Shown one piece after another: positions 28,023-53,108 of a stretch of DNA of 64,000 nt. The DNA comes from Spirochaetia bacterium. GTDB lineage: Bacteria; Spirochaetota; Spirochaetia; SZUA-6; Bin103. Under the pieces are notes generated by a model. That model was not told the DNA's origin and made no database searches. It was given only the letters and a program-made list of their open reading frames with translations. Location: the NCBI GenBank assembly GCA_965203905.1, contig CBDBDQ010000005.1:5312001-5376000 (forward strand), given 5' to 3'. The translations under genes and the position numbers were made by a program. Position 1 is the stretch's first letter, and every line of letters begins with the position of its first letter.

Positions 28023-28211
28023 CGTGCCTCCTCCGCCCGGAGCCATACTACCAGACGGCCTGTTCGGACGCGTGTTCGACGCAACCTATCTGGAACGCAA
28101 GATCCTCCACGGCTTTCGCCACTCGACGGCGTGCTCAGCCCATTATGTTCCCTCCGCACTCATCTGCTTCCAGCTACCCATGCTCCCCGGAGCGCTATCC
28201 GATTTCCCGCT

Positions 28212-29462: not shown

Positions 29463-29487
29463 CGGATACCTCTGCCGTAATTTGTTA

Positions 29488-29697
29488 TGACGTAATTATA
29501 CACATGGATTCCTCGGTGCCACTTTGGAGAGTTCCCGGAGCATCGGGCACCAAGCGCGTAGCAACGTGCCAGGGCCTGTTGATGGCTCTTGGAGAGTGCA
29601 AGTGGGGTTCCGGAAACCAAACTGGACCACAAGGCCGTCATGGGGCCGGGACGGAAGGGACAAACTTGCGTCAAGTGTTTTCTTCGAATTTCTTTGG
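29488..29697 (-). promoter_or_regulatory. Conserved ~210-nt leader of the HNH gene (candidate ncRNA or element end)
   Basis: A-tract plus TTGACG (29674), TGTGTATAAT (TATAAT at 29500), 9-bp stem at 29512-29554; aligns by eye with 40999-41195. Confidence 0.55.
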
Positions 29698-29823
29698 TTT
29701 TGTTCGAAAATACTGAAGTTGCCGGTGGCCAACCGGGCGTTGCCGGCACGTGCCTCTCGAATTGGCAGCGCGTTGCGCGCGACGACCCGGCGCGCTTGCA
29801 GCAGGCTGGCGCCCGCGGATCCG

Positions 29824-31029
29824 TCAGGCGAAGCCGATGCAATGCAGCGGGACACGGTGGCCCGGGGTGTAGTCCTGGTCGTCAGCATGGAACAGCACCA
29901 CCTTGCGGTCGTAGGTCAGGCCCTTGAACTGGGAGCGTCCCTTGCTGCGGCCGCCCACCTCGATGACGTGGTCGCGGCCGTCGAGAGCGACCACGAAGTC
30001 GGGAGTCTTGGCGCCGCGGGTCGACTTGGCGTAGCGAAACGGCATCCCATGCTGAGCCATCGCCAGGGCGAAGAAATCCTCGCGCAGTGCTCCGATGCAG
30101 TCCTCGTAGGAGCGGTACAGGAGCCGGTAGGGGGGCTCCATGAAGACCTTCGGCTCGCGCAGGACGTTGGCGCCCGCGGGAAACGCCTGCCGCAGCAGAA
30201 ACGCCCGTTCGAGGGCACCGACGTACTGCGCCGCCTTGTACTTGGTGATCGCCAGGTTGCGCGCCAGCGAGGTGTAGTTGATGCCGTCGATGGGCGAGCG
30301 ACCGACGAACTTGAGGAGTTGCTCGATGTTGGCGAGGTCCGCTCCGGTGAGATTGGGATCGTGCGCCGGCAGATCACTGCGGATCACCTTCTCGGCGATG
30401 TTGCCGAACAGGTCGAGTCCATTGCCGGCCTCCAGCACGAACGGATAGAGACCGCCGGCCAGGTACTCCGTGAAGCGGAACGAGGTTCGCAGGTATGCCG
30501 CCGGGATATCAGCGCCCAACGCGGTGGCGAGCGGAAGAGATGGCAGGGGCTCGCCGCCGGCGAACTCCAGGAACTCACGGAATGCGAACGGCAGCAGCTC
30601 CAGGATGCGCACGCGGCGCGACAGGTCAGCCGCCGAGCCGTACAACGAGACGGCCACGGAGCTGGTGAACCAGATGCGCACCGGCAGGAAGTCATGGATC
30701 TCCTTGAGCTCGGCGGCGTAGTCGCGCAGGTAGTGAATCTCGTCGACGAAGAACGCTTGCACCCGGTACCGATCCAGGAACGAACGCACCAGGTCGACCA
30801 GTCGGTCGCCTCGATCCAGGGTATCCGCGGAGACGTAGAGTGCGTCCTTGGTACGCGCCCGCAACTGGCGTAACATGACGGTCTTGCCGGTCCCCCGTGG
30901 TCCAACGAGCGCAACGAACGGTCTGCCCGATGTCTGTTGGAGTTCCTGGAACAGGAGCCGGGTTCGCGGGTACCGGCGGGCGTCCCGAACGGCCAGCGCG
31001 TCGCGGTCCAGCAGGTGGTTTGCGTTCAC
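29824..31029 (-). CDS. AAA_14 / DUF4143 ATP-binding protein
   Basis: GPRGTGKT, VDEIHY, TSS....ADLSRR, GGLYP, and a C-terminal PD-(D/E)XK-like TPDFV..IEVGG; start codon uncertain. Confidence 0.8.
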   Translation of the reverse strand: MNANHLLDRDALAVRDARRYPRTRLLFQELQQTSGRPFVALVGPRGTGKTVMLRQLRARTKDALYVSADTLDRGDRLVDLVRSFLDRYRVQAFFVDEIHYLRDYAAELKEIHDFLPVRIWFTSSVAVSLYGSAADLSRRVRILELLPFAFREFLEFAGGEPLPSLPLATALGADIPAAYLRTSFRFTEYLAGGLYPFVLEAGNGLDLFGNIAEKVIRSDLPAHDPNLTGADLANIEQLLKFVGRSPIDGINYTSLARNLAITKYKAAQYVGALERAFLLRQAFPAGANVLREPKVFMEPPYRLLYRSYEDCIGALREDFFALAMAQHGMPFRYAKSTRGAKTPDFVVALDGRDHVIEVGGRSKGRSQFKGLTYDRKVVLFHADDQDYTPGHRVPLHCIGFA

Positions 31030-31165
31030 TATCGAGCACTTTAGCAAACCGCTTACCAAAATGATAGCCACTATAGACATCAATTTGCCAAAATGCGCGG
31101 ATGTCGAGCGGTATGCCGCCGTCGCGACGATTGATCCATTAGCGCAGTCATGTTCAAACTGCTGC

Positions 31166-31408
31166 ATGGTGTGGATGCAGATTCAGCTTCCGAATGCGCT
31201 GTACGAAGAGGCGAAGCGGGTAGCGCGCGAACGTGAGATGTCGCTGGCGGAAGTGGTGCGCCGCGGGGTCGAGTACATCACGCAGGTGTATCCGCCCCTT
31301 GGGAGCGGCGAACCGTGGCGCCCGCCGGCGCCCAGCGACGTTGGCCCCTTCAAGGCGCCGCAGGAGGATTGGCGTCGGATCGTGAACGATCCGGCGGAGT
31401 ACGATTGA
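31166..31408 (+). CDS. Ribbon-helix-helix antitoxin (CopG/VapB-like)
   Basis: QIQLPNALYEEAKRVAREREMSLAEVVRRGVE. Confidence 0.75.
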   Translation: MVWMQIQLPNALYEEAKRVAREREMSLAEVVRRGVEYITQVYPPLGSGEPWRPPAPSDVGPFKAPQEDWRRIVNDPAEYD

Positions 31409-40710: not shown

Positions 40711-40998
40711 GAAGCACGGAACCTACCGCCCCCCGCAGCACGCGGTCAACGCCGGAGTTCACGGTACGCGGGGCATCGCCATCAGGGCCATCCCATGCTG
40801 AACGACCTCTGAATCCCGCGTGGACAAGCGGCGGTGATGGCCCCGACCCCTGCCAGATTCGCTGCTCTCAGGGTACGGGTTCGTTCGCTGTACGACATGT
40901 CCACGAACGGGTGGGTTGCCACCCAACCGCAGCGCGCCGTTCTCCGCCGATACATTGCTGCCACGTCGGCGCCGCGGTGCAGGATTGTGCGACAAGTG

Positions 40999-41195
40999 CC
41001 AAAAAAATGCGCTGAGCACTTGACGGGTTTGGCGCCGCTCGTAGTGGCCCCCTGCCGCCCGGTCCGGCCTTCAAACATCCCGCCACGCCCTCCAGGCCTG
41101 TCAGCACCCCGCCAGCGCCGGCCTACACTCTTTCAGGTGCCGGTCCGGGACTTGCCTAAACCGGGCATTTCTTAGCCATGCTTATATTTGCGCCA
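40999..41195 (+). promoter_or_regulatory. Orphan homologue of the HNH leader element
   Basis: CCAAAAAAATGCG..CACTTGACG..GTTTG..GGCCCC.TG.CG..GGTCC..GGTGCC..CCGGGA..GGCA..CCATG..TATATT, colinear with the reverse complement of 29488-29697. Confidence 0.55.
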
Positions 41196-41257
41196 CGGCT
41201 ACCGATTCTATTTTATCCTGCTCGGTTCTGATTCACTCTGTTCTGAGGAGTTGACAC

Positions 41258-41460
41258 GTGCCTGCACAGTTCCATTCTGGTGCATCACCGACACCGGTCC
41301 TTGATGGCTACCCCGTAATCTTGCGGACGCGAGCGGTGCTGGAGTTGACGGATCTGTCGCGTACTACATTATGGCGACGCGAACGAACTGGCGACTTTCC
41401 AAGGTTAGTCAAGCTCGGAGGTCCGGAATCGCGCGCAGTCGGTTTGGCTGCGTTCGGATT
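41258..41460 (+). pseudogene. alpA: AlpA-family phage regulator/excisionase, 3' end disrupted
   Basis: ILRTRAVLELTDLSRTTLWRRERTGDFPRLVKLG..RAVG, after which similarity is lost. Confidence 0.75.
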
Positions 41461-41609
41461 TAGAACGATAGCTGGAGGCTATGTCGAAGGCGTAAGCCGT
41501 TATCGTGAGGACGCGGGGACCGGAGGGAACCGGACAGGATGCAGCCCCTTCCATCTTAGCCGAGGCGGTCGCAAAAAATGCCCTTGTCGGACGTTAGGAA
41601 ACGGCGAAA

Positions 41610-42104
41610 CTAGTTTTTCTTGCGGCGTCGAATACGACGTCGAGCTCGTTCAAGGAATTCGAGAGAGTCAAGAGCATCAAATATCGGTCTGCTTATAACT
41701 AAGCCGAATCTGGGGGAGTTTTGGTTAGTCTGAAGATCGTCATAGATCCCTATAGCCTTGCGCAATCCCAAGATTTGAGTCCCCGTCATAGCGTCTGACC
41801 TGAAATCAAGAGCTTGCTCTACATATCGTTTTGTCGCGTAAAACAGCTTGTGACGGAAATCCTCTCCAGTCACTATTAAGTGGCCCGTTGGAGCGCGTTG
41901 ATCGGGAACTGATTCTGCGAGTAGCGTGTCTCGATGTGCCTCAATTAATGAGGCGATATACTGGATCTGCCCTCTCCGTTTGCAGAGCAGCGTAAGATAT
42001 TGAATGCCGGATAGAACAATTCCCGCTGAAACACCGATAACGACGCCTTCCAGCAATGCAATCGGATCGACTACGAGGGAAGATAGGAGCTGGTCGTCGG
42101 ACAT
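41610..42104 (-). CDS. Hypothetical protein with an N-terminal transmembrane helix
   Basis: 164-aa ORF in lower-GC DNA; hydrophobic IALLEGVVIGVSAGIVLSGI followed by basic residues. Confidence 0.55.
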   Translation of the reverse strand: MSDDQLLSSLVVDPIALLEGVVIGVSAGIVLSGIQYLTLLCKRRGQIQYIASLIEAHRDTLLAESVPDQRAPTGHLIVTGEDFRHKLFYATKRYVEQALDFRSDAMTGTQILGLRKAIGIYDDLQTNQNSPRFGLVISRPIFDALDSLEFLERARRRIRRRKKN

Positions 42105-42329
42105 GATGGAAGTGTAACAAGGAACGCTGCGCCGGCGTCAAGCTGGAATCCACGCCGCCGCGCCAGCCCGAGCGACAGAACGGCAGTTTAAAGAAGCGGC
42201 TGGGAGGGGTGGGATTGGCTTGGCGCTTTCGCGGGGACAAGGCGATACTGAGACGGTGGCAGAGCTTGTCGACCGCCACGGCAACGAGCCGTCTAGATCT
42301 GCCGAAACCAGATTCGCGGACCAGTCGGA

Positions 42330-43100
42330 CACGCCCAGCGACCAGAATCCCGCCGCCATCTTGAGAGCCTCCACCCGTCCGGGCGCCGCAGCCTGCGCCG
42401 GGAACTCGACCGCGCGGTCGCAATCTTCACTGACTAGGCCGTCACAGATGTGACGGCCTTCGACTGGTCGCAGATAGACCTGCAGCAGGTCGAAAGGCTG
42501 CGCTCGGCTATGGTCGACAGCGACGCCGCAGCCAGTACCGTCAACCACATGCTTTCGGGCGCCCAGAGTATGATGCGCATAGCATGGGAACACGGGCTGG
42601 TAGACGACAAGACGCGGATTCAATATCGAGAACGTACGGAACGAGGAGCCGCAACGGCGTCGGCGTGCAGGACGATACGTCAAACGAAACGAGCTCCGGC
42701 GCCTGTTCGCGGCGGCCCGGAACCGACTTTATCGGCGCCCTTCGATGCAGCCGTGCTCGCTTTGCTCTACGGCGCCGGCCTTCAGCGCTCGGAAGCAGTC
42801 GCGCTGCAGCTCGCGGACTACGATCAGGTGTCCGGGGCCATCACGGTTCGCCACGACGAGCGGCAGGTATACGCAACAAACAGCGGCAAGGAAGCGATCG
42901 AAGCCTGGATATCGCGATCCGTGGCGCCTGGCCGGGCGTTTGGCTATGCCCGGTCGCCAAGGGCGGAAGCATCCAGACGCGGGACATGACCGCTCAGGCC
43001 GTGATGGTGCGAGTGCGCAGCATCGCAGAGCAGGGAGGCGTCGACCCGGTTGCCCCAAACGATCTGCGCCTGACGTACTTGACCGACTTGGCGAGGCAGA
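42330..43100 (+). pseudogene. Tyrosine recombinase remnant, copy 1
   Basis: NPAAI..., STVNHML, DAAVLALLYGAGLQRSEAV, MTAQAV, PNDLRLTY spread over several frames. Confidence 0.8.
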
Positions 43101-43383
43101 AGCGCGAAAGTTGGAGTGTCGCCGGTACTCCAGATTGCTTTCCGACGAACGCCCTCTGGAAATTGAGATTGATACGTCGTGAAAAAACGCCTGTATCGCC
43201 TGGCGACTGTCTATGGTACACAACAGAGTGCAGATGCTAGTCGGACGCGCCACAGCACTTAACCTGCTGCGGTCCCGTGCCGAGATGCTCCGATGTCACT
43301 ACCATGACATTCCGTCCCAGTTGTCGAACGGGCACCTGCTGCACCAACCGGCGCTTCCGTGTACGAAGTCATCCCAACAGCAC

Positions 43384-46300
43384 TTAACTACTCACTCCAG
43401 ACGGTGCGACCTCGTCTAGTGTCGACACCCGGCGCCATATGTGGGATCCAGATACATAAATCTTCCGCACGGACTCAGGGATGTCGTCCGGATCCCGACC
43501 GAAATCGAAATTTCTTTCGCCCCAGACAATCCATACTAGCGCGTAGTCATGCGCCTCGCAATAACTATTCAGGAGACGCTCCTTTATGTAAAGAAGATTA
43601 CCACTCTCAAACCCTACAGGCGATCCAACCGTCATCGATACTCTCTCGCCTTTATCATCGCACCAATCCAGACTGTTGGGTATGGCCCTCAGGTCAAACT
43701 TGTCCGCAAACGTTATAGCTGGAATCGCGCCACCACCAGAATCGTTCACGCAGGAATGATACGCCTCCCATAGATACTCATGAACTGGAATCTCAACAGT
43801 GATTTCCCTACCGGAACCGGTCCGAATGGTACCCAAGTACAACCCTCGAAGATCCTTCGAACCGCGCCACTGTCGCGCCCCCGCGCTCCAGGGCATTTCG
43901 CCAGCGAACGAGTAGTACGACACCGGAGGATCAGGAAGCCAATGGTTTCCAGGATAGCGCCGTGAATGAAGCGCATCTTTCAATTCATGAATGTCGCTCC
44001 TTCGAACGAGAATCGCCTTCAGGAAACCGAACACCTCACGCCTATGGACAACGTTTTTCTTCCGAAGAAAACCGTGGAGGGCTAACCAGTGACCACGTTG
44101 TCCGTTAAGATACTCCGACCTCAGTATTTCATCAGGGACCTTCACTAACGCCCGTTTCGTCCATGCTTCAGGATCTAGAGGTTCACAAGGGAGCCAGCCA
44201 TCGATACTTGTACGAAGCGCTGGCGGCGACCGCGGGAATGACGGATCGATGTCGATATCCGAAAGTCGACCATCATCGACATGAAGTGGCAAACGTCCCT
44301 CCTCGTGTAATCTGCCGGCGGCTTCATAGAAACCGATCCATCCATACTTCTTGGCATACGGATCTAGGTGACTCGGATCTATCCGGCCGGCATACCCGCG
44401 AGACTCGGAAATCTCTCGCTCCGCCTCCTCGAATCGGTCCGCTCGCCATCCGAGGTCCCACACACGGCCCCGAATCCAAGATAGTACTTCCTGGTATCCG
44501 GGATGATCGTAGTCATAGTTCCGACGATCAGGAACCAAGCGGCCGACCGTATAATTCTTGAAATCGAAACCGTATAACAGATCGCCGTCTTCATTCCTCT
44601 TGTCATCAGATAGGATAGGACGGACTCTGTTCGGCATAGTAAAGCGCGAGTTTCGTGCGCACCTGCTCTGACGGAAAGTGTGAGGAAAGTAACGTTCCGT
44701 GATCTCCATTATGCCACGCACGTACTCACGAATCAGGGCATGGCTCGTGGGCTTCGCAGCATTCGCGGTGTAATATGTCGTCCAAACTCTGTCGAGAAAC
44801 CCAATTACACCGTCATCAAGGTCGAGATTCTTGCTAGACTCTGCCATCATCACGCCAAACGTAGCTGCGAGTAAGCGCTCCGGAACATACGGATCGTTCT
44901 CGGTAAGGCTGGACATCGTGAGTTGCAGAAGTGTGCTAAGGTCTCCGCGACCGCACCAATACAGTGCCAAGGTCGCCGTATCGCGAAGACAGCGAGCCGT
45001 GCTAGTAAGAAGCCACTTCGTCCAGACAGCCTGCAGCTGATCCTTTTGTGTGTGAGCATGTTCGCTTCGCCACTGGTCTATATACGAGCGCAGTTGAATC
45101 AGTGTGTTTTCTTCCCGTTTCCTAATCCACTCGGTCCATCTGAGGTCACGATCAGGAACTGAAGTTTCACTGAGGATCTGATTTAGGAATTCGGCATTAA
45201 GCGGATGTGTAGGGACGTCGTGGACCTCAAGGAATCGATCGAATAAGTCCCGCTCGAACCGCGGTAGAGGTAACATTGCTATACGCCCGATCTGGGTCAC
45301 TGTTTCATCGTCCAACAACGAGGCTTCCAGATCGGCCGCGGCCACAATCGCGTCGTGTCGTAGCGTCCCGTTGAGCAGCGTCCAGAGTTGGATCCGGTAC
45401 CTTCGCGGAGTCAAAGCTGATAGGGCTGCGCGGATGTCAGCGGATAGCGGGTGAGCTTGGCTTACAACTGTACCAAGACGTGATAAGACGCAATCATTAG
45501 CAATCCACTCCACAAAATCATCCTGACTCATCCGCCCTAAGAGCTCATCAGCTACGAGAAAGCCGGCGAATGCGTCAAATAGGATCACTGTATGGTGAGC
45601 ACCTTTGTGATCTGTATCTCGGCTGAGGATACCCTCATCGACGAACGCTTGCGCTAAGCTACTCGACCAGTCCTGACTAGTGTCGTGGATCAGGGCGCGG
45701 AGTTCGTCGAACGGTATTGCTCGGCGGCGTGTATCCCATAGAGACCGGGCAATAGATTCTAGCGCGGTGCGAATATCCGACGGGAGTCGCCGTGGGCCGC
45801 CGGGACGCTCTGCAATTCGGATGAGTGCCCGGTCGCGGAATAGACGGAACGCGACGACGAGCGACCCTGGAACCTCCTCGGCTCTCTTCCAACGTACGCG
45901 GTCTGCATTCGTCGCCTCGCAGAAGATTCTCAGGAAAAGAGGATTATTAAAGCGCAGAAGGGGTATATGCAGACCACTGCGATCGATCTTGTAGTAATCG
46001 AAGTATCTGTTAACTGCCTTCGCGGTAAACCGCGAAAATCCTCGCAACATAACCTCCGAAATTCCTTGAGGTAGCGTCATACTCCTCGCCGATGGCCTGA
46101 GCGTCACGACGAGAACGACACTGGGAAAACGCTGCAGTACGACTCTCAGAGTCTCGAGCTCCGACTTCCAAGCTGCAGGATCCTCGGAGTCGGATAGTCC
46201 GTCGATCATCACAGGTAGCCGTGCTCCGGCCCGCACCGCAGCTGACTCCGCAGCATCGAGGACCTCCTCGAACGTGTTCGCCGACAGCCCACGCAAACGT

Positions 46301-47414
46301 GGCACAAGATCATCGACAGTATCCCGCCTCCCAAGCGGCCACGCTTCAAGATAGATCCCGCTCGGACGCCCTTTAGTCTCTGCGGTTAATGATGCTCCAA
46401 GATGTGTTTTTCCGCTCCCAGCTTCACCGACAACTGCGACCAACCTCGTCATGTACGTCCGTCGCATCATTGAGAATCGGCGCCGAACTTGATGGTGCCT
46501 GGAAATCGCTGCCTGCACACCAAACGCGCTTAGATGTCCCGACCGCCTTAGCGCTCGACCAAGACGCCGTCCCCTTGCGCGGGTGAACATAAAGCGGTGC
46601 TCGGCTGTATACTCCTCTGTCAAAGTCAGAAAGTCGAGAAACGCTGATCCCGACATCTTGCACAACTTTGCGTGTGACCGTACCAGGTCGTCCAACAAGA
46701 CGTGCATATCATCTCTGTAACGCTCCTCGATCTCTCCGGTCACTGTCCTCAGCTGCTCGACCGAGACGCCGATGGAACTCTCCAAAACCTGCACCTCAGG
46801 CCAATAGCGTAACTCACCTAGCAATCTCCTAATCTGCTGCTCTACCTCCACCACAACATGCACTTCCGGCATCCAGCGTTCCCGAACGGGAGCAAGCGTC
46901 CGTCTACGCAACTCGCGTAGATCATCGGGGGCCAGCACGAGGTTTCCAAATAGGTCCTACGAAAAATCTCACACTCCCCCACCAAATGTGCCTCTAAATG
47001 TTCCTCCGTCCATAAATGTAACCGCATAGTCGATTTCACAGCATAGAACCACTCTTGATCCGTGGGTGTCAGCGGTCTTCTTGTCCACAAGACCCAATCC
47101 GTAATCCCCGGTACATACTTCTGAGCTTTCTGAATCGCATCCTCGATCTTACTACGGCGACCACTACCAATCTGCCGCCCCGGAGGAAGTCCGTACCAGC
47201 GACACTGCCAACCCCAACACCTTCCCTTTTTGCCAAGAGTCGACGAGTCTGCATCTAGCGTGAGGTGGAACTCCACCCCAGGCTGCATCGCCACCGCGCG
47301 AAACAAACCTAGTGCTCCGAAGCTCCGAATGATGACCGACCGACACAGCCTCTCCCAATTGTCGGCCGGCGAACTAGGCAAACTCTCGAACAAGCCCCAG
47401 TCGAGTGCGCTCAT
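43384..47414 (-). CDS. avs2: Avs2-like STAND NTPase with a putative N-terminal nuclease domain, split by a 1-nt frameshift near 46949
   Basis: N-part WGWQCRWY..WVLWT; C-part Walker A GEAGSGKTHL, IDGL, NPLFLRIFCE, WTEWIR, DPYVPERLLAA, KKYGWIGFYE, DIDPS. Adding one T (TAT TT[T] GGA) joins the two ORFs as RRTYFGNLVLAP. Confidence 0.7.
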
Positions 47415-47429
47415 AGTGAGTCCCGCTTC

Positions 47430-47843
47430 TTAACACTCCGTGTCGTCTGGCGGACCATCGGGAAAGTCGTGAAGCGAGTACACCTCCACGTGAGCGCCTT
47501 TTCCGATTAAGAACTTCAAAAAACCTCCGATATCTAACTCCTCCGTTCGAATCACCACCCGAGACCCCTCAGCTTGCACAGAACTTTGCCTATTCAGTTG
47601 CTCTAGTTCCTCGCCCGACACACTGTGGAGATTCAGTTCCTTCAACACTTCCACAAGCGGTTCGATCGTAAACACTGACATTGGATCGTCGTCAAACTCT
47701 TCGTAATCGAACTCACGCTGAACGACGTCGACGATCTTCAGTATCTCCTGCGCAGCTACCTGCGCATCTCCCGATGAGACGAAGTGGCCTATGAGAACTA
47801 GATTAGAAGAGTGCTCGGCACCAAACCCATACCACACTTTCAT
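47430..47843 (-). CDS. DUF6375-like hypothetical protein
   Basis: MKVWYGFGAEHSSNLVLIGHF...KFLIGKGAHVEVYSLHD; family name is from recall; ATGA-coupled to the radical SAM gene. Confidence 0.65.
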   Translation of the reverse strand: MKVWYGFGAEHSSNLVLIGHFVSSGDAQVAAQEILKIVDVVQREFDYEEFDDDPMSVFTIEPLVEVLKELNLHSVSGEELEQLNRQSSVQAEGSRVVIRTEELDIGGFLKFLIGKGAHVEVYSLHDFPDGPPDDTEC

Positions 47844-48745
47844 TCTACTAAATCCGATCTCCTACCGCGTAGTATAGCGAGTGCGTCTTGAACGGACGAC
47901 CGAATCCTTACCCGCTCACTCGAGAAAGACGACTGACGAAGATTACCTGATGCATCGATGTGCGCGTACGCCGTAAGTCCATCCGAGTCGCTAAACGGAC
48001 TCAATATCGGTATACCCTCGAGCGACGGTGTATCTGACAATGCTATCCGATAATCCTGATTCCGCTTGATCCAATCCAGAAGTCTCTCCCACGTTAATGA
48101 ATGTAACGGCTTCCGGTTCCCAACAGGGCGCTCCGGAAGTAAGAGTAGCTCGACTGCTCCAAGATCAAATATGATCTGCGCTGCCGAGTCTAGATGTTGT
48201 ATCGTTTTGTCGTTCACGACGTAGTTTATTCCGAACGGAGCAATCGTCTTAGCTAGTTTTATTTTCTCGAGAAATGCTGGAAAACTACGGCCTCTGAGCT
48301 GCGCATATGTCTCACCATAGCCATCCATAGATAGACGCAGAAAATGTACAGAGCCGTACAGTTCACTGGCTGTAGCGGATGTAAGGTGATGGCCGTGGGT
48401 CGTGAACGAAACTGCAAGGTTCGTCTCCGTTGAGAGTTTCTTACATATTGCAACAAAATCTGGATGCAGGGTCGGCTCGCCGCCGCCTAGGCCGATACCC
48501 ATGCACCCTCCATCGTCCAGCTCCATCGCCCATCGAATAACGGTTTTAATTGGTAGCCTCCCGATGTGCTTCGGGGCGTAACAAAACGAACATTGGAGAT
48601 CACATGCATTCGTGAGTGCCATTGAGACAAACCGTGGTGCTGGGTGTATTCTAGAATCCGGCACTACGATCTCGTCAAATAGCAGGTTTAATCCGCTGAG
48701 CCGGTCGAATAGATGGACTCCGTTATTATCAAGTCGTATTTTCAT
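47840..48745 (-). CDS. Radical SAM protein
   Basis: TNACDLQCSFCY (CxxxCxxC), GGGEPTLHP, TTHG, LSMDG; probable start MKIRLD at 48745. Confidence 0.88.
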   Translation of the reverse strand: MKIRLDNNGVHLFDRLSGLNLLFDEIVVPDSRIHPAPRFVSMALTNACDLQCSFCYAPKHIGRLPIKTVIRWAMELDDGGCMGIGLGGGEPTLHPDFVAICKKLSTETNLAVSFTTHGHHLTSATASELYGSVHFLRLSMDGYGETYAQLRGRSFPAFLEKIKLAKTIAPFGINYVVNDKTIQHLDSAAQIIFDLGAVELLLLPERPVGNRKPLHSLTWERLLDWIKRNQDYRIALSDTPSLEGIPILSPFSDSDGLTAYAHIDASGNLRQSSFSSERVRIRSSVQDALAILRGRRSDLVE

Positions 48746-48759
48746 TTGTCGATGAGCGG

Positions 48760-49150
48760 CCAGACGGACTGCAGGATCGCGTCGTCTATCCTCAGCCACT
48801 GAGTGACGCTCTTGCTAGACGAAAGAGGCCAGTACGAACCGCTAATGTACGAACCCGGTGGCTTGCTATCTCCGTGCTTCTTAAAAAAGTGAGCGGCCCA
48901 CAACAACAGAGCGTCGCCCAACTGGTCTTGCATCGGAGTCGTGATCCGTAGTTTCGTGCTCAGAGTGGAGTGGACGGCGCAGGAGCGGCACGATCGATTG
49001 ATGTCGTCGGTGCGCTGCCGTGTGGCCGCGGTCGCGAACGACTTGTGACAGCGAGCACGCATCCGCGCTGCCTCTTGCGGCTCGAACGCTTCCAGCAGGA
49101 ACAGGCACCCTAATTCGTTGAACTGCCGTACGTGCTCCTTGCTTAGCACC
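48760..49150 (-). pseudogene. PhyH dioxygenase remnant
   Basis: LSKEHVRQFNELG..LGDALLLWAAHFFKK..SYWPLSSSKSVTQWLRIDDA; the HQD motif and C-terminus are lost. Confidence 0.6.
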
Positions 49151-49814
49151 CGCGGGCCGGGCACCCAAGGTGAAAAGGCGCACATTACTTGGTGATCGTT
49201 TGTCGCACCGGACATCACGGCGCTGATTCAGACACCGTTGCCGTGTTGTAGTCAAGACCTCCATTGCTTGCGCAGCTTGGCGCGGTTCGGCGGAAGGGCA
49301 GTCGGTTGCGTCGCGGTCGCCTCCCGATGTGCACGCCAATAGCTTGGCGTGGCCGTACTCTTAGACGTGATTGTCGGCTTCAACGGCGCGGTGGTGAGAA
49401 ATGCGGGTTGCATGTGCACAGCTGCGCATCGGCACCACCAACCCTGGCCCACGTCGAGGCCAAGATCGCCCGCGCCGGGGAAGGCCGGTTGCGGGAGGAC
49501 CAGCTGCCCGCGCTACGCAGCGACTTCGCCGGCGCCGAGAGCGCTTCCGGCGACGCGTGGACCGGCGGACGTCACGGTGGCGATGCGATTCGGTCGTCCC
49601 GCAAGAGCCAAGTGGATCCGAAGGCGGGCGTGGGGGAGCGTGGGGCGTCGCGCAAGCGAAGCCGGCTATGTAGGTGGGATTGGCTTGGTGCGTTCGAGAG
49701 AACAGGGGGGTACTACTTCTCTATGCACCAACCACGTCGCTTCCGCCCGCACGGCTGGATTGACTGTGTAACTGCGGGCGGCTCGACTGTCGCCGAGCTT
49801 CTGGAGCTGCCGAA

Positions 49815-50640
49815 ATGAGTGCCGCGGACGAGTCGGTTGCGCACAGCGACATCGCGCCGGTACAGAACCCCGCCGCCATCTGTCTCGAACGGCTCCACCC
49901 ATCCGGGCGCCGCAGCCTGCGCCGGGTACTCGACCGCGCGGTCGCAATCTTCACTGACGGGGCCGTCACAGATGCGACGGCCTTCGACTGGTCACAGATA
50001 GACCTGCAGCAGGTCGAAGAGCTGCGCTCGGCATTGGTCGACCGCAGCGCCGCAGCCGGCACCGTCAACCACATGCAATCAGGGGTCCGGAGTAAGGCGC
50101 GCACAGCATGGGCCCACGGGTTGGTAGACGACAGGACGCGGTCAAAATCGAGAACGTACGGAACGAGAAGCCGCAACGGCGTCGGCGCAGGCAGATACGT
50201 CAAACGAAACGAGGGTCGGGGCTTGTTCGCGGCGGTGCTCGGTACCGATCCTATCCGTGCGTGATGCAGCCATGCTCGCTTTGCTCTACGGCGCCGGCCT
50301 TAAGCGCTCGAAAGCAGTCACGCACCGGCTCGCGGACTACGACCAGGTGTCCGGGGCCATCACCGTTCGCCACGACGAGCGGCAGTCTACGCGACAGACG
50401 GCGGCAAGGAACAGATCGACGCCTGGATTGCGCATCGCGGCGACTGGCCGGGCGCTGCTGTGTCCCGTCGCTAAGGGCGGGCGCAGCCGGCAGCGGGCCA
50501 TGACCGCCCAGGCCGTGATGTTGCAGTACGCACCATCGGAGAGCAGGCGGGCATCGACCAAGTTACTCCGAACGATCTGCGCCATCTGCGCCTGAGGTAC
50601 TTGACCGAGCTGGAGCTGGAGAGGCAGCGACTCGACGCTT
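49815..50640 (+). pseudogene. Tyrosine recombinase remnant, copy 2 (diverged direct repeat of 42330-43100)
   Basis: Long shared nucleotide runs such as GACCGCGCGGTCGCAATCTTCACTGAC and CAGATAGACCTGCAGCAGGTCGAA; frameshifts differ between copies. Confidence 0.8.
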
Positions 50641-51438
50641 GGACGACAGGCAAGGCCGAAGGGCTACCGGTACCCGTGATGTTGCCCGTTCCGTGCCAAG
50701 CGCCCTGATTCGACGATCAAGCCGGCGGCGGGGGCGCCACGCGGCGCTACGGGCGACAGAAGCGGTCCTATCGGTAGCCGCACAGGTCAGTCGGCGGTGG
50801 TCTCCGGGCGGCCCTTGGGCGCCTCCGCAGGCCAGCCGTTCGTTGGCCAACAGGGCGGGCCGGGCGGCGCACCCTCGATGCGGGCCACACGATTCGCTTC
50901 AGGCCGTACAGGTCGTGGCGCGCACTTCGGCGACGCTCGCACGTAACCGGTCGATCTCCCGGTGCATGGAAGCGCCCTGCGATTCTACTATTGGCGCTGC
51001 ACAGCTCGTCCAGGCTAACTCTGTTTGTAGCCACTTCTACCGGAGCATGCAGGAGCGGAGCCCCCGAAAAGGCGCAGACCCTCTGCACCGGAGCACCGGA
51101 CACGCGATCGTTGTCCTCCAAGTCCACCACGCCCCCGGACCCGTGACCCCAGGTCCAGCGCAGCGGCTTGGCTTGCGAGGAGCTCGTCGCCATAGCCCGT
51201 AGCGCTCAGTTACCGGTCAACCTGCGCCTATTAGCCGCTGCATCCTACGCTGACATCGCAGGCGCCGCTCTAGCCGGGTTGTTTCAGATGTAGTTCTGCA
51301 CGATTGCCCATCTAATGATCGAACAGATACGGCCCTTCACTCGGCGCGCCGGCGCCATCCTGGTGTGCCAGATAGGCACGATTCGTAGCGAGCACATTCC
51401 GCAGTCGTGATTCTGGCTCACCGGCATGTGGCTGTGCG

Positions 51439-52340
51439 TCAACCCGGCGCCAAACGCGTCAGGTAATCCGCCCACGCCTGCATCAGTCTCCGCCGCCGCT
51501 CGAACAGGTCGGAGCGCATGTAGGCGCCTTCGACACCCGCGACAACATGCGCAAGCGCAGAGTCGGCTAACTCCCTTGATTCGTCGTTCTCCGCGCACCA
51601 AGGACCGGAACGACGTACGGAACCCGTGCATCGTGGCGTCGATGCCCGACCCAATCAACAGCGATCTTGTCGTCACGCTACTCAGCGCCTTGCCGGTCGG
51701 CGACGGAAACAGTAGGCCCGAGCCATCCGACAGCTTCTGCGCTTCGATCAGCAACTCAAGCGCCCGAGTTGACAACGGTACCCGATGCTCACGACCGGAT
51801 TTCATTCTCTCTGCAGGTAAGGTCCAGACCCCAGCATGTAGACCCACCTCGCTCCAAGTAGCAAGCCGAGCCTCTCCGGATTGAGCCGCCGTCAAGATCG
51901 TGTACTCCATCAGCAGCTTGGTCGCTGCTTAGGCGTTTGACGCCCGAATCTTGCCTGGCGCACTCGCCACCTCTCGACGATGGAGCGCCCGCCGGTGTCT
52001 TCTCGGGGCAGTCCCGTTCTTGGGCAGCACCTGCGAAACGGCGTCTCCGGCCGGATTGTCACTCCTATACCCTACGCCAATCGACCACCGCATCACCGCT
52101 CCGATCCAATGCCGCAGTCGCCTCGCCGTCTCCTGCCTCCCATCGTTCCAGATCGGCGTCACCACGGACAGAATGTCTGCGCTGGTGACGGCGCCGATCG
52201 GTTGCTCCCCATAATCGGAGAGACGAACCGCCTGAACGATGAACACCAGATGTCGGCGATACGCGGATTGCGCCAAGTGGTGGCGTGCATCTCGACGACA
52301 GTCTCTGACGCCTTGTCGAAGCTCGGTGTGGCGGACCCCT
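51439..52340 (-). pseudogene. P4-type phage integrase pseudogene
   Basis: TPIWND..ETARRLR, DNPA, in-frame TAA at 51929, LTAAQSGEAR (catalytic R to Q), RMKSGREHRVPLS, HGFRTSFR, a frameshift, then LAHVV..VEGAYMRSDLFERRR. Confidence 0.88.
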
Positions 52341-52931
52341 TACTCGGGTCGTGCCCCTGGTGGAGGCTCGTGCGTTCTCCAGCGCCGCCTCACGGGCTTC
52401 CGCCACGCAAGAGCAACCTGGAGTGCCGCCGCCGGAGGGCACGGTCGCCGGTGGCAGCACCACGGCGCCGGCAGCGCCGCCGTCGGGGCTGAGAGACTTG
52501 CTCCGGCAGCACCCCGGTGAGTGCCAAGCCTGCGGCGATTGCGCCCGGCACCGCTACGTCGGCGGCGAAGTCGGCGCCAGACCGCGGGTCCCACGCCACC
52601 GTACCGACGCCACGGCCGACGCCGCCAGCAGACCAGGGCATGCAGGTCGCTCTGGCAGCGGGGGATCGTGGTCGCAACGGTCCTTCGCCAGCGAAGCGGG
52701 CAGGGGAGGCGCACCTTGATGGCCGTTCGCGGCCGCAGCGGCGGCTGCTGCAGTTACGTCGATCCGCACAGCGGGCGGCGCTGCGGGTCGCGCTTCCTGC
52801 TGGAGCTCGACCACATCGTTCCCTTCGCGCTTGGCGGCAGCGCCGAGCCCGGGAATCTCCGGCTCCTTTGCGCTGCCCACAACCGCTTCCGGCATCGGGA
52901 GTACCGACCACGGCCAGACGGGACCACGTGA
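52341..52931 (+). pseudogene. C-terminal remnant of an HNH endonuclease (same family as 28212-29462)
   Basis: Low-complexity linker, then CSYVDPHSGRRCGSRFLLELDHIVPFALGGSAEPGNLRLLCAAHNR. Confidence 0.8.
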
Positions 52932-53108
52932 TCCGCGCCGGGGTGCGAGTCGGGCGGTCGGGCGGTCGGGCGTCGGTCCGATGGCAACGGTAGTTACGAT
53001 TGCAGCCGGCTTCTCGCGTAGCGTGGGATAGTTCTGGCATCGCCATCCGGCGCAGCGTTCATCGCTGCCGACCTGTGATAGGATCGCGCGGGGTTCCCGA
53101 GGCGCATC

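Follow-up and report, generated by a model that had tools for sequence, protein, structure and literature searches.

Introduction

Among described systems, the HEARO (omega) RNA of IscB offers a close parallel for the element considered here: a conserved noncoding stretch of a few hundred nucleotides (nt) lies directly upstream of a mobile gene that contains an HNH domain. The locus under study has the same outward arrangement. It is located in a 64,000-nt stretch of contig CBDBDQ010000005.1 from a Spirochaetia bacterium (hereafter the window, i.e., the whole stretch of DNA that was analysed), where an element of ~200 nt at positions 29488-29697 (minus strand; copy A) precedes a gene for an HNH endonuclease and recurs at positions 40999-41195 (plus strand; copy B). 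An earlier note on this DNA regarded the element as an HNH-associated noncoding RNA or a structured mobile-element end. Our analysis leads to a different reading, which we hold to be, on balance, probable: the element is the promoter and control leader, acting at the level of DNA, of a selfish, multicopy HNH nuclease gene, rather than a structured noncoding RNA.

The resemblance to IscB includes the protein, in that the HNH domain of IscB is the closest structural match to the HNH domain encoded here (Z 6.2-6.7 over 57-58 residues). However, neither a RuvC nor a PLMP part was detected in the present protein, for which Pfam reports HNH only, and, unlike HEARO RNA, the leader has no Rfam match at E <= 1 and displays no conserved helices or covariation. 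Elements of the IS200/IS605 type are not known to have either inverted-repeat ends or target duplications, whereas the unit described here has inverted-repeat ends and target duplications of 9 base pairs (bp).

The REP13E12/DUF222 repeats of mycobacteria are likewise multicopy chromosomal units, of ~1.4-2 kilobases (kb), whose only gene encodes an HNH protein in which the N-terminal part is long and helical. The prophage-like element phiRv1 integrates into REP13E12 copies, and here, too, an integrase-bearing island of low guanine-plus-cytosine (GC) content sits inside one HNH element. By description, the two families differ in that Pfam DUF222 was not reported for the proteins of this study; to our knowledge, neither inverted-repeat ends, nor 9-bp duplications, nor a split-promoter leader has been described for REP13E12.

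Two kinds of promoter are also comparable, namely, leaderless sigma-70 promoters and the junction promoters of circular insertion sequence (IS) intermediates, which are assembled from separated -35 and -10 halves: here, a -10 box is placed 6 nt ahead of the ATG, the -35 and -10 boxes are apart in the resting element, and a compact form is found in relatives. Unlike in IS circle junction promoters, both halves are here contained in one leader, 172-174 nt apart, instead of one half at each end of the element, and neither a circular nor a deleted form of it was observed. The last comparison is with the Rpn/YhgA-like (Transposase_31) nucleases, since a 1290-bp Rpn element bears the same 17-bp ends as the HNH unit but has no leader of the HNH-element kind. 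In one study, the E. coli Rpn proteins are considered as possible eroded mobile elements (PMC5350276).

Multicopy genes annotated with an "HNH endonuclease signature motif" are common, and several related genomes hold dozens of copies. Among the listings and abstract openings returned by a full-text literature search, we found no paper on the present family, its ends, its leader, its spread or its control. At this locus, a gene other than a known transposase is framed by clean inverted ends and target duplications, and the same ends surround a gene for a nuclease of the Rpn/YhgA type, a family long suspected of being mobile.

A leader shared by a multicopy HNH gene family

The colinear likeness of A and B, which the earlier note had drawn by eye, is borne out, and the sequences that it cited are present where it placed them. 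In a global alignment, B and the reverse complement of A share 134 identities over 220 columns; the score of 29 compares with a mean of 3.4 (standard deviation 2.0, maximum 17) for 500 dinucleotide-preserving shuffles (z = 12.6). An nhmmer profile built from 63 other leaders, with A left out, matched A colinearly over profile positions 9-230 (E 5.3e-8). The two copies originally counted are both genuine relatives, but their number was too low, the genome (7.99 Mb, 66% GC) containing ~55. With B as the query, blastn returned 54 stretches of at least 150 nt, 45 of them (B included) at 78.6-100% identity and nine at 58-61%. Copy A represents a third leader type, present once, and retrieves only short pieces of the nine divergent copies when used as the query. 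We thus distinguish three subfamilies in this genome: the main subfamily (45 copies), subfamily 2 (nine copies) and A.

The proposed link to a multicopy HNH gene family also stands. All 54 B-type copies, as well as A, are positioned at an HNH start codon, be it intact or visibly disrupted. An open reading frame (ORF) of 387-634 amino acids with the family N-terminus follows in 47 of the 54, the other seven being frameshifted, truncated or interrupted, and tblastn searches of the genome gave 55 N-terminal and 59 C-terminal HNH matches. None of the copies in the genome was seen before an unrelated gene; B, the sole apparent exception, adjoins a gene for an AlpA-like regulator because a low-GC island has replaced most of its HNH gene.

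The protein of A is only 41-42% identical to those of the two main subfamilies. Judging from the alignments, the leader is nevertheless constrained across subfamilies: A was found by the profile and its length has been kept, where unconstrained DNA should be unalignable. Within the main subfamily, pairwise identity amounts to 89.5% in the leader, compared with 76% in the other noncoding 220 nt of the element.

Two promoter boxes at a fixed distance

Starting from box spacings of 174 nt in A and 163 nt in B, the earlier note had argued that the TTGACG and TATAAT-like boxes are too distant from each other to form one promoter. The coordinates agree with both spacings (in A, TTGACG at 29674-29669 and TATAAT at 29500-29495), and the argument is correct; it proved to be the most informative clue of all. 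Among 80 related loci taken from other genomes, ~42 (by eye) have a compact form, in which AACTTGACT is followed after 17 nt by TATACT and, after a further 6 nt, by the ATG. The compact promoter of one of these loci (L014; TTGACT-17-TATACT, with the ATG 6 nt on) scored 10/12 in a promoter scan. A -10 box this close to the ATG is what a promoter for a leaderless mRNA would have, and, from its sequence, the compact form is an ordinary sigma-70-type promoter of that kind.

The three subfamilies of this genome and nine outside loci (L092, L046, L062, L065, L074, L035, L059, L052 and L067) carry the split form, in which a segment of ~150 bp comes between the same two boxes. The start-to-start distance between the boxes is 172-174 nt in 61 of the 62 leaders measured, which fall into six groups with proteins only about 41-65% identical; the sole leader outside this range is the decaying copy B. 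The distance between the promoter halves has stayed the same in six diverged lineages, even though most of the intervening DNA has changed. When the groups are given equal weights, 34 columns do not vary at all and 61 are shared by five groups. CTTGAC and the A-tract upstream of it are invariant across the six groups, the TATAyT-6 nt-ATG arrangement is almost invariant in the leader alignment, and the best-kept blocks over the six groups are CTTGAC, GGAC and TATAnTTacg.CATG.

The -10 hexamer, 6 nt before the start codon, falls within the 5-8 nt expected of leaderless sigma-70 promoters. A -35 box at 16-18 nt from it is present in the compact relatives, weak in A (GTGGCA-16) and absent in a subfamily-2 copy, and in our reading several groups, subfamily 2 included, have a putative extended -10 of the TGn type. 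For the GTGGCA-16-TATAAT site of A, the promoter scan gave an expectation of 0.1 sites in shuffled sequence. Copy A no longer has the leaderless ATG, in place of which it reads ATA, and its ORF begins 33 nt downstream, after GAGG.

Tests for RNA structure

The claim that the element is structured found no support in any form of consensus folding applied to the 64-leader MAFFT alignment. RNAalifold predicted 3 pairs (-1.93 kcal/mol), consensus folds of either strand revealed no helix in common, whether computed for all sequences or per group, and no column pair on either strand exceeded P = 0.3 in at least three of the six groups. Folding energies resembled those of shuffled sequences, with z-scores of -0.06 for A and +0.44 for B at their exact coordinates and, for 12 representatives, of -1.53 to +0.90 in the sense and -2.64 to +1.30 in the antisense orientation. 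Covariation in the 45 main-subfamily copies was limited to eight isolated double-change column pairs per strand, none of them stacked. The terminal stem, said to have been kept despite divergence, does not hold up either: its 9 pairs are standard in 20.8% of 514 cells of the 64-sequence alignment when read in register, and 48-49% are paired when the 3' partner is slid by -2 or -3 columns. As for the noncoding RNA itself, Rfam gave no match at gathering scores in the whole window and none at E <= 1 in five leader-bearing loci, and a scan for tRNA and tmRNA genes found none.

An antisense G-quadruplex was considered and discarded as a common feature, being present in 79% of the main-subfamily copies and 25% of the L046 group but in no copy of the other groups. 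When the 150 bp were checked for small ORFs, every group had open frames on both strands, which ~70% GC would lead one to expect, and the leader indels between groups are not multiples of three. Strong colinear conservation before a multicopy gene need not imply an RNA.

A putative control leader and its alternatives

We favour a leader that functions as DNA. The HNH gene would be transcribed from the proximal -10 box as a leaderless mRNA, presumably with assistance from the weak -35 box in A and from the TGn extended -10 in several groups. The 150-bp segment, with its short blocks and its A-tract/TTGAC box, would constitute a putative protein-binding control region, which could restrict a potentially harmful nuclease gene to low or conditional expression; candidate binders are a host nucleoid protein or the N-terminal helical domain of the element's own protein. 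If the 150 bp indeed serve as a regulatory wrap or switch, the promoter design would be an unusual one.

Several observations weigh against this reading. Leader identity within the main subfamily (89.5%) is no higher than the level of third codon positions (88.3%), and recent constraint on most leader positions is therefore weak; selection seems to act on a few blocks and on length, not on most positions. In a subfamily-2 copy, the promoter scan found no site. The alignment used for the structure tests was sequence-based, not structure-aware, and 3 of the 12 representatives have antisense z-scores at or below -2 (-2.01, -2.29 and -2.64), so that some copies may have antisense structure. Finally, the ParB/KorB-like matches of the helical N-terminal part (Z 4.2-5.1) lie within the noise of the comparison tool for helical proteins.

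A rather unlikely alternative is that the distal A-tract/TTGAC box is itself a working promoter and that the ~170 nt after it are transcribed, as a 5' leader or as a separate noncoding RNA. Such an RNA might guide the HNH protein or serve as its scaffold, or it might be a leader for Rho loading or translational control, with a structure missed by standard folding. That CTTGAC and its A-tract are invariant in six diverged groups suggests that the distal box is still used, and the fixed 172-174 nt could reflect a tertiary RNA architecture. Rho-loading sites are C-rich, G-poor and unfolded in composition; the sense strand of the leader is C-rich and G-poor in several groups, with a skew of -0.16 in A and subfamily 2 and of -0.26 in the main subfamily (more extreme than the 95th percentile of 150-nt windows in the genome), and the leader folds no better than shuffled sequence. 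However, only in the main subfamily is the skew strong, and two groups hardly deviate from zero (-0.04 and -0.06). Scans of A and of a subfamily-2 copy detected no -10-like hexamer (A at position 2, T at position 6) 16-18 nt past the distal box, where the candidates picked by eye read TAACGG, TGACGG and TCCCGG. Conserved pairs, covariation and an Rfam family all fail to appear, and the protein matches IscB in the HNH domain only, at 15-24 bits against a cut-off of 175. Moreover, the upstream region of the compact relatives is unlike the 150-bp segment (z <= 1.1), so that a family-wide RNA partner is not indicated; a homology between the two regions had seemed apparent by eye, but was rejected by local alignment (z -0.55 to +1.1, 300 shuffles).

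We consider it unlikely that the ~150 bp are a functionless relic, that is, a small insertion (~141 bp plus a 9-bp duplication) in the 17-nt spacer of an ancestral compact promoter, tolerated, passed on to every descendant and precisely deleted in one clade. Relatives with a compact promoter do exist. Furthermore, the 9 nt that follow the distal TTGAC agree with the opening 9 nt of the proximal spacer at 6.3/9 positions in subfamily 2 and 7.25/9 in the L046 group, the best of ~150 positions in both; this repeat may point to an old insertion that made a 9-bp duplication, or to a route of precise loss. Recombination between these repeats would restore TTGACG-17-TATATT, and 9 bp is the length of the target duplications of the inverted-repeat elements in this genome. 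The repeat is, however, confined to those two of the six groups; A, the main subfamily and the L035 and L052 groups score 3-4.1/9 (ranks 18-46). By eye, no inverted repeats surround the segment, and the genome has no free copies of it away from HNH genes. The 172-174-nt length and the blocks are kept across lineages with proteins ~41-45% identical, which is unexpected for a functionless relic. The branching order, too, counts against the relic. In a protein tree of 51 sequences (FastTree, 338 columns, rooted on the low-GC group, no support values printed), from which three loci (by hand), all frames below 300 amino acids and 19 near-identical compact-promoter copies were left out, the split form occupies early-branching high-GC lineages and the compact form a nested clade; the split form consequently looks older within this group.

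A chance similarity between GC-rich intergenic regions can be dismissed outright, as it is refuted by the shuffle comparison (z = 12.6), by the match to the profile lacking A (E 5.3e-8) and by the 54 further copies. The similarity of A and B is best read as common descent of the leader, kept by selection on blocks and length, not by RNA pairing.

The mobile unit

In the main subfamily, similarity between copies begins sharply at CAGGGCCATCCCATGCT, ~420 nt before the ATG, and stops just as sharply at ...AGCGTGGGATAGTCCTG, ~130 nt past the stop codon. The unit so delimited measures 2.1-2.2 kb, with 17-bp terminal inverted repeats and 9-bp target duplications. Its left and right ends are imperfect inverted repeats of the form CAGGrCyATCCCAyGCT, and alignments of 45 and 25 copies show sharp boundaries. 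Exact direct repeats of 8-10 bp are present at 8 of the 28 paired ends, and about five more pairs match at 8/9 positions (by eye). The notion of a mobile-element end is right insofar as the leader belongs to a mobile unit, but the end of the main-subfamily unit, the inverted repeat, is located ~230 nt further upstream. In eight relatives, the two flanks of one element are separated by 0-630 nt, the element itself being absent, and none of these is a base-exact empty site; the nearest relative in this comparison is also without 164 nt of the left flank. Among 37 intact copies, pairwise identity of the HNH frame at codon positions 1, 2 and 3 is 96.6%, 98.4% and 88.3%, respectively. The HNH frame is under purifying selection and is the only long ORF of the unit that is under selection.

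About 14 of the 45 main-subfamily copies (by eye, L093-L136) carry an extra segment of ~24 nt, ~40 nt inside the left end, which makes CATCCC...GGGATG a hairpin; the other copies are cleanly without it.

No transposase family was detected in the HNH protein with Pfam and NCBIfam. CAGGG ends and 8-10-bp duplications are features of the ISAs1 family. An assignment to ISAs1 was nonetheless dropped, there being no ISAs1 transposase in the genome, where the one fragment found scored 28 bits (cut-off 70); the genome-wide search for transposases was confined to this family. The only long ORF of the 1290-bp element with the same 17-bp ends encodes a Transposase_31/YhgA-like (Rpn) protein (Pfam E 1e-15). 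The Rpn element, of which the genome holds ~3-5 copies or fragments, has no sequence in common with the HNH element beyond the 17-bp ends. A third class of element with these ends did not emerge: 31 of 100 end-like matches with at most 2 mismatches have neither HNH nor Rpn inside, those among them with 0-1 mismatch are broken HNH elements, and inspection of nine of the 31 by eye showed no transposase-like ORF.

A bolder proposal, which we hold to be improbable, is that the HNH-only and Rpn-only units are autonomous transposons moved by a stand-alone nuclease (HNH or PD-(D/E)XK) and not by a known transposase, with nuclease expression coupled to transposition by the length-locked 150-bp segment between the split boxes, acting as a nucleoprotein switch or as an unconventional RNA partner. 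If the nuclease itself does move the element, this would amount to a new kind of transposition.

Units outside the main subfamily have different boundaries. Six of the nine subfamily-2 copies (L139-L145) have ~230 nt more in common, 100-330 nt upstream of the distal box; this stretch is coding-like, as though part of a host gene had been duplicated together with these copies. No inverted-repeat end of the main-subfamily type was seen in the copies that share it. In the compact-promoter family of one related genome (L014-L056), the unit ends with TTGGAAATGCGCC, ~90 nt after the HNH stop codon, and the same 13-mer recurs in the 5' leader, ~95 nt before the ATG; these copies have no ends like the 17-bp inverted repeats of the present genome.

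The HNH protein

Among 8000 candidates scored, 385 homologues were found at E <= 0.001. The AlphaFold model has a mean predicted local distance difference test (pLDDT) score of 72.3, with residues 11-130, 171-270 and 335-404 being confident. A Foldseek search of the model against the PDB returned no match at E <= 0.001; with VIA-align, solved structures matched in the HNH domain only (IscB, McrA and Cap5; Z 5-6.7), and a profile search against PDB sequences likewise gave HNH domains only. PADLOC reported only weak Cas9-HNH matches (E about 1e-3). The possibility that the protein is an IscB was rejected: the match to the NCBIfam model guided_IscB reaches 15.2-24.4 bits, where the cut-off is 175, and the alignment is limited to model positions 181-239, corresponding to the HNH domain.

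Features of the window and interrupted elements

Table 1. Location of the features of elements A and B in the window and of the Rpn element elsewhere in the genome
Feature	Position	Strand	Basis or remark
5' noncoding leader of HNH element A, contains 29488-29697	29463..29900	-	Colinear homology to leaders of other copies
Distal TTGACG box of A, A-rich tract before it	29669..29674	-	CTTGAC invariant in six leader groups
Proximal promoter-like site of A, GTGGCA-16-TATAAT	29495..29522	-	Promoter scan 10/12; homologous to TATAyT box
HNH gene of copy A, 416 amino acids	28212..29462	-	Pfam HNH, E 9e-7, residues 363-395
Degenerate right-end repeat of element A, AGCATGGGTAGCTGG	28170..28184	-	Resembles main-subfamily right end AGCGTGGGATAGTCCTG, by eye only
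Left target-site duplication of element B, GCATCGCCAT	40773..40782	+	Identical 10-mer after right end
Left terminal inverted repeat of B, CAGGGCCATCCCATGCT	40783..40799	+	Exact consensus match; boundary sharp in 45-copy alignment
Left 437 nt of main-subfamily element, holds 40999-41195	40783..41202	+	blastn to intact element positions 1-437, 81% identity
Distal TTGACG box of B	41020..41025	+	Read from sequence and alignment
TATATT box of B	41183..41188	+	163 nt from distal box
11.2-kb low-GC island, in place of element positions 438-1321	41203..52405	.	GC profile, Pfam
AlpA-like regulator gene in island	41258-41698		Pfam
NACHT/AAA ATPase, 1184 amino acids, in island	43384-46938	-	Pfam
Radical SAM protein in island	47840-48799	-	Pfam
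Phage-integrase-family fragment in island	51284-51910	-	Pfam
Right part of B: 3' HNH part, 3' noncoding, right inverted repeat 53020-53036	52406..53036	+	blastn
Right target-site duplication of element B, GCATCGCCAT	53037..53046	+	Perfect 10-mer repeat
Rpn element	C5:5515052-5516341 (locus L011 501-1790)		Further copies near C5:3261700 and C5:1733710

Element A has, in addition to the features listed in Table 1, a degenerate left-end repeat at 29900-29884, which agrees with the consensus end at 11 of 17 positions (by eye). A neighbouring gene for an AAA_14/DUF4143 ATPase (29824-31167, minus strand) terminates inside this left end, so that its last ~25 codons and its stop codon come from the element.

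In element B, the start codon has become ACG (41195-41197), and homology to the intact element ends a few bases further on. It resumes beyond the island, where 52406-53036 is 80-89% identical to intact element positions 1322-2139 (blastn) and the right inverted repeat has 1 mismatch to the consensus end. The GC content of the island is 51-56% over most of its length, compared with 69-73% in the flanks. The segment looks like an integrative island, possibly a defence island, which has used or destroyed the HNH gene.

Two more main-subfamily elements, at C5:4667874-4672278 (4.4 kb between its ends) and C5:7575718-7580434 (4.7 kb), have lost the HNH frame at a point within the leader or just past it. 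Together with B, this makes three interruptions near one place of the element, and the region of the leader and start codon may be a preferred integration site.

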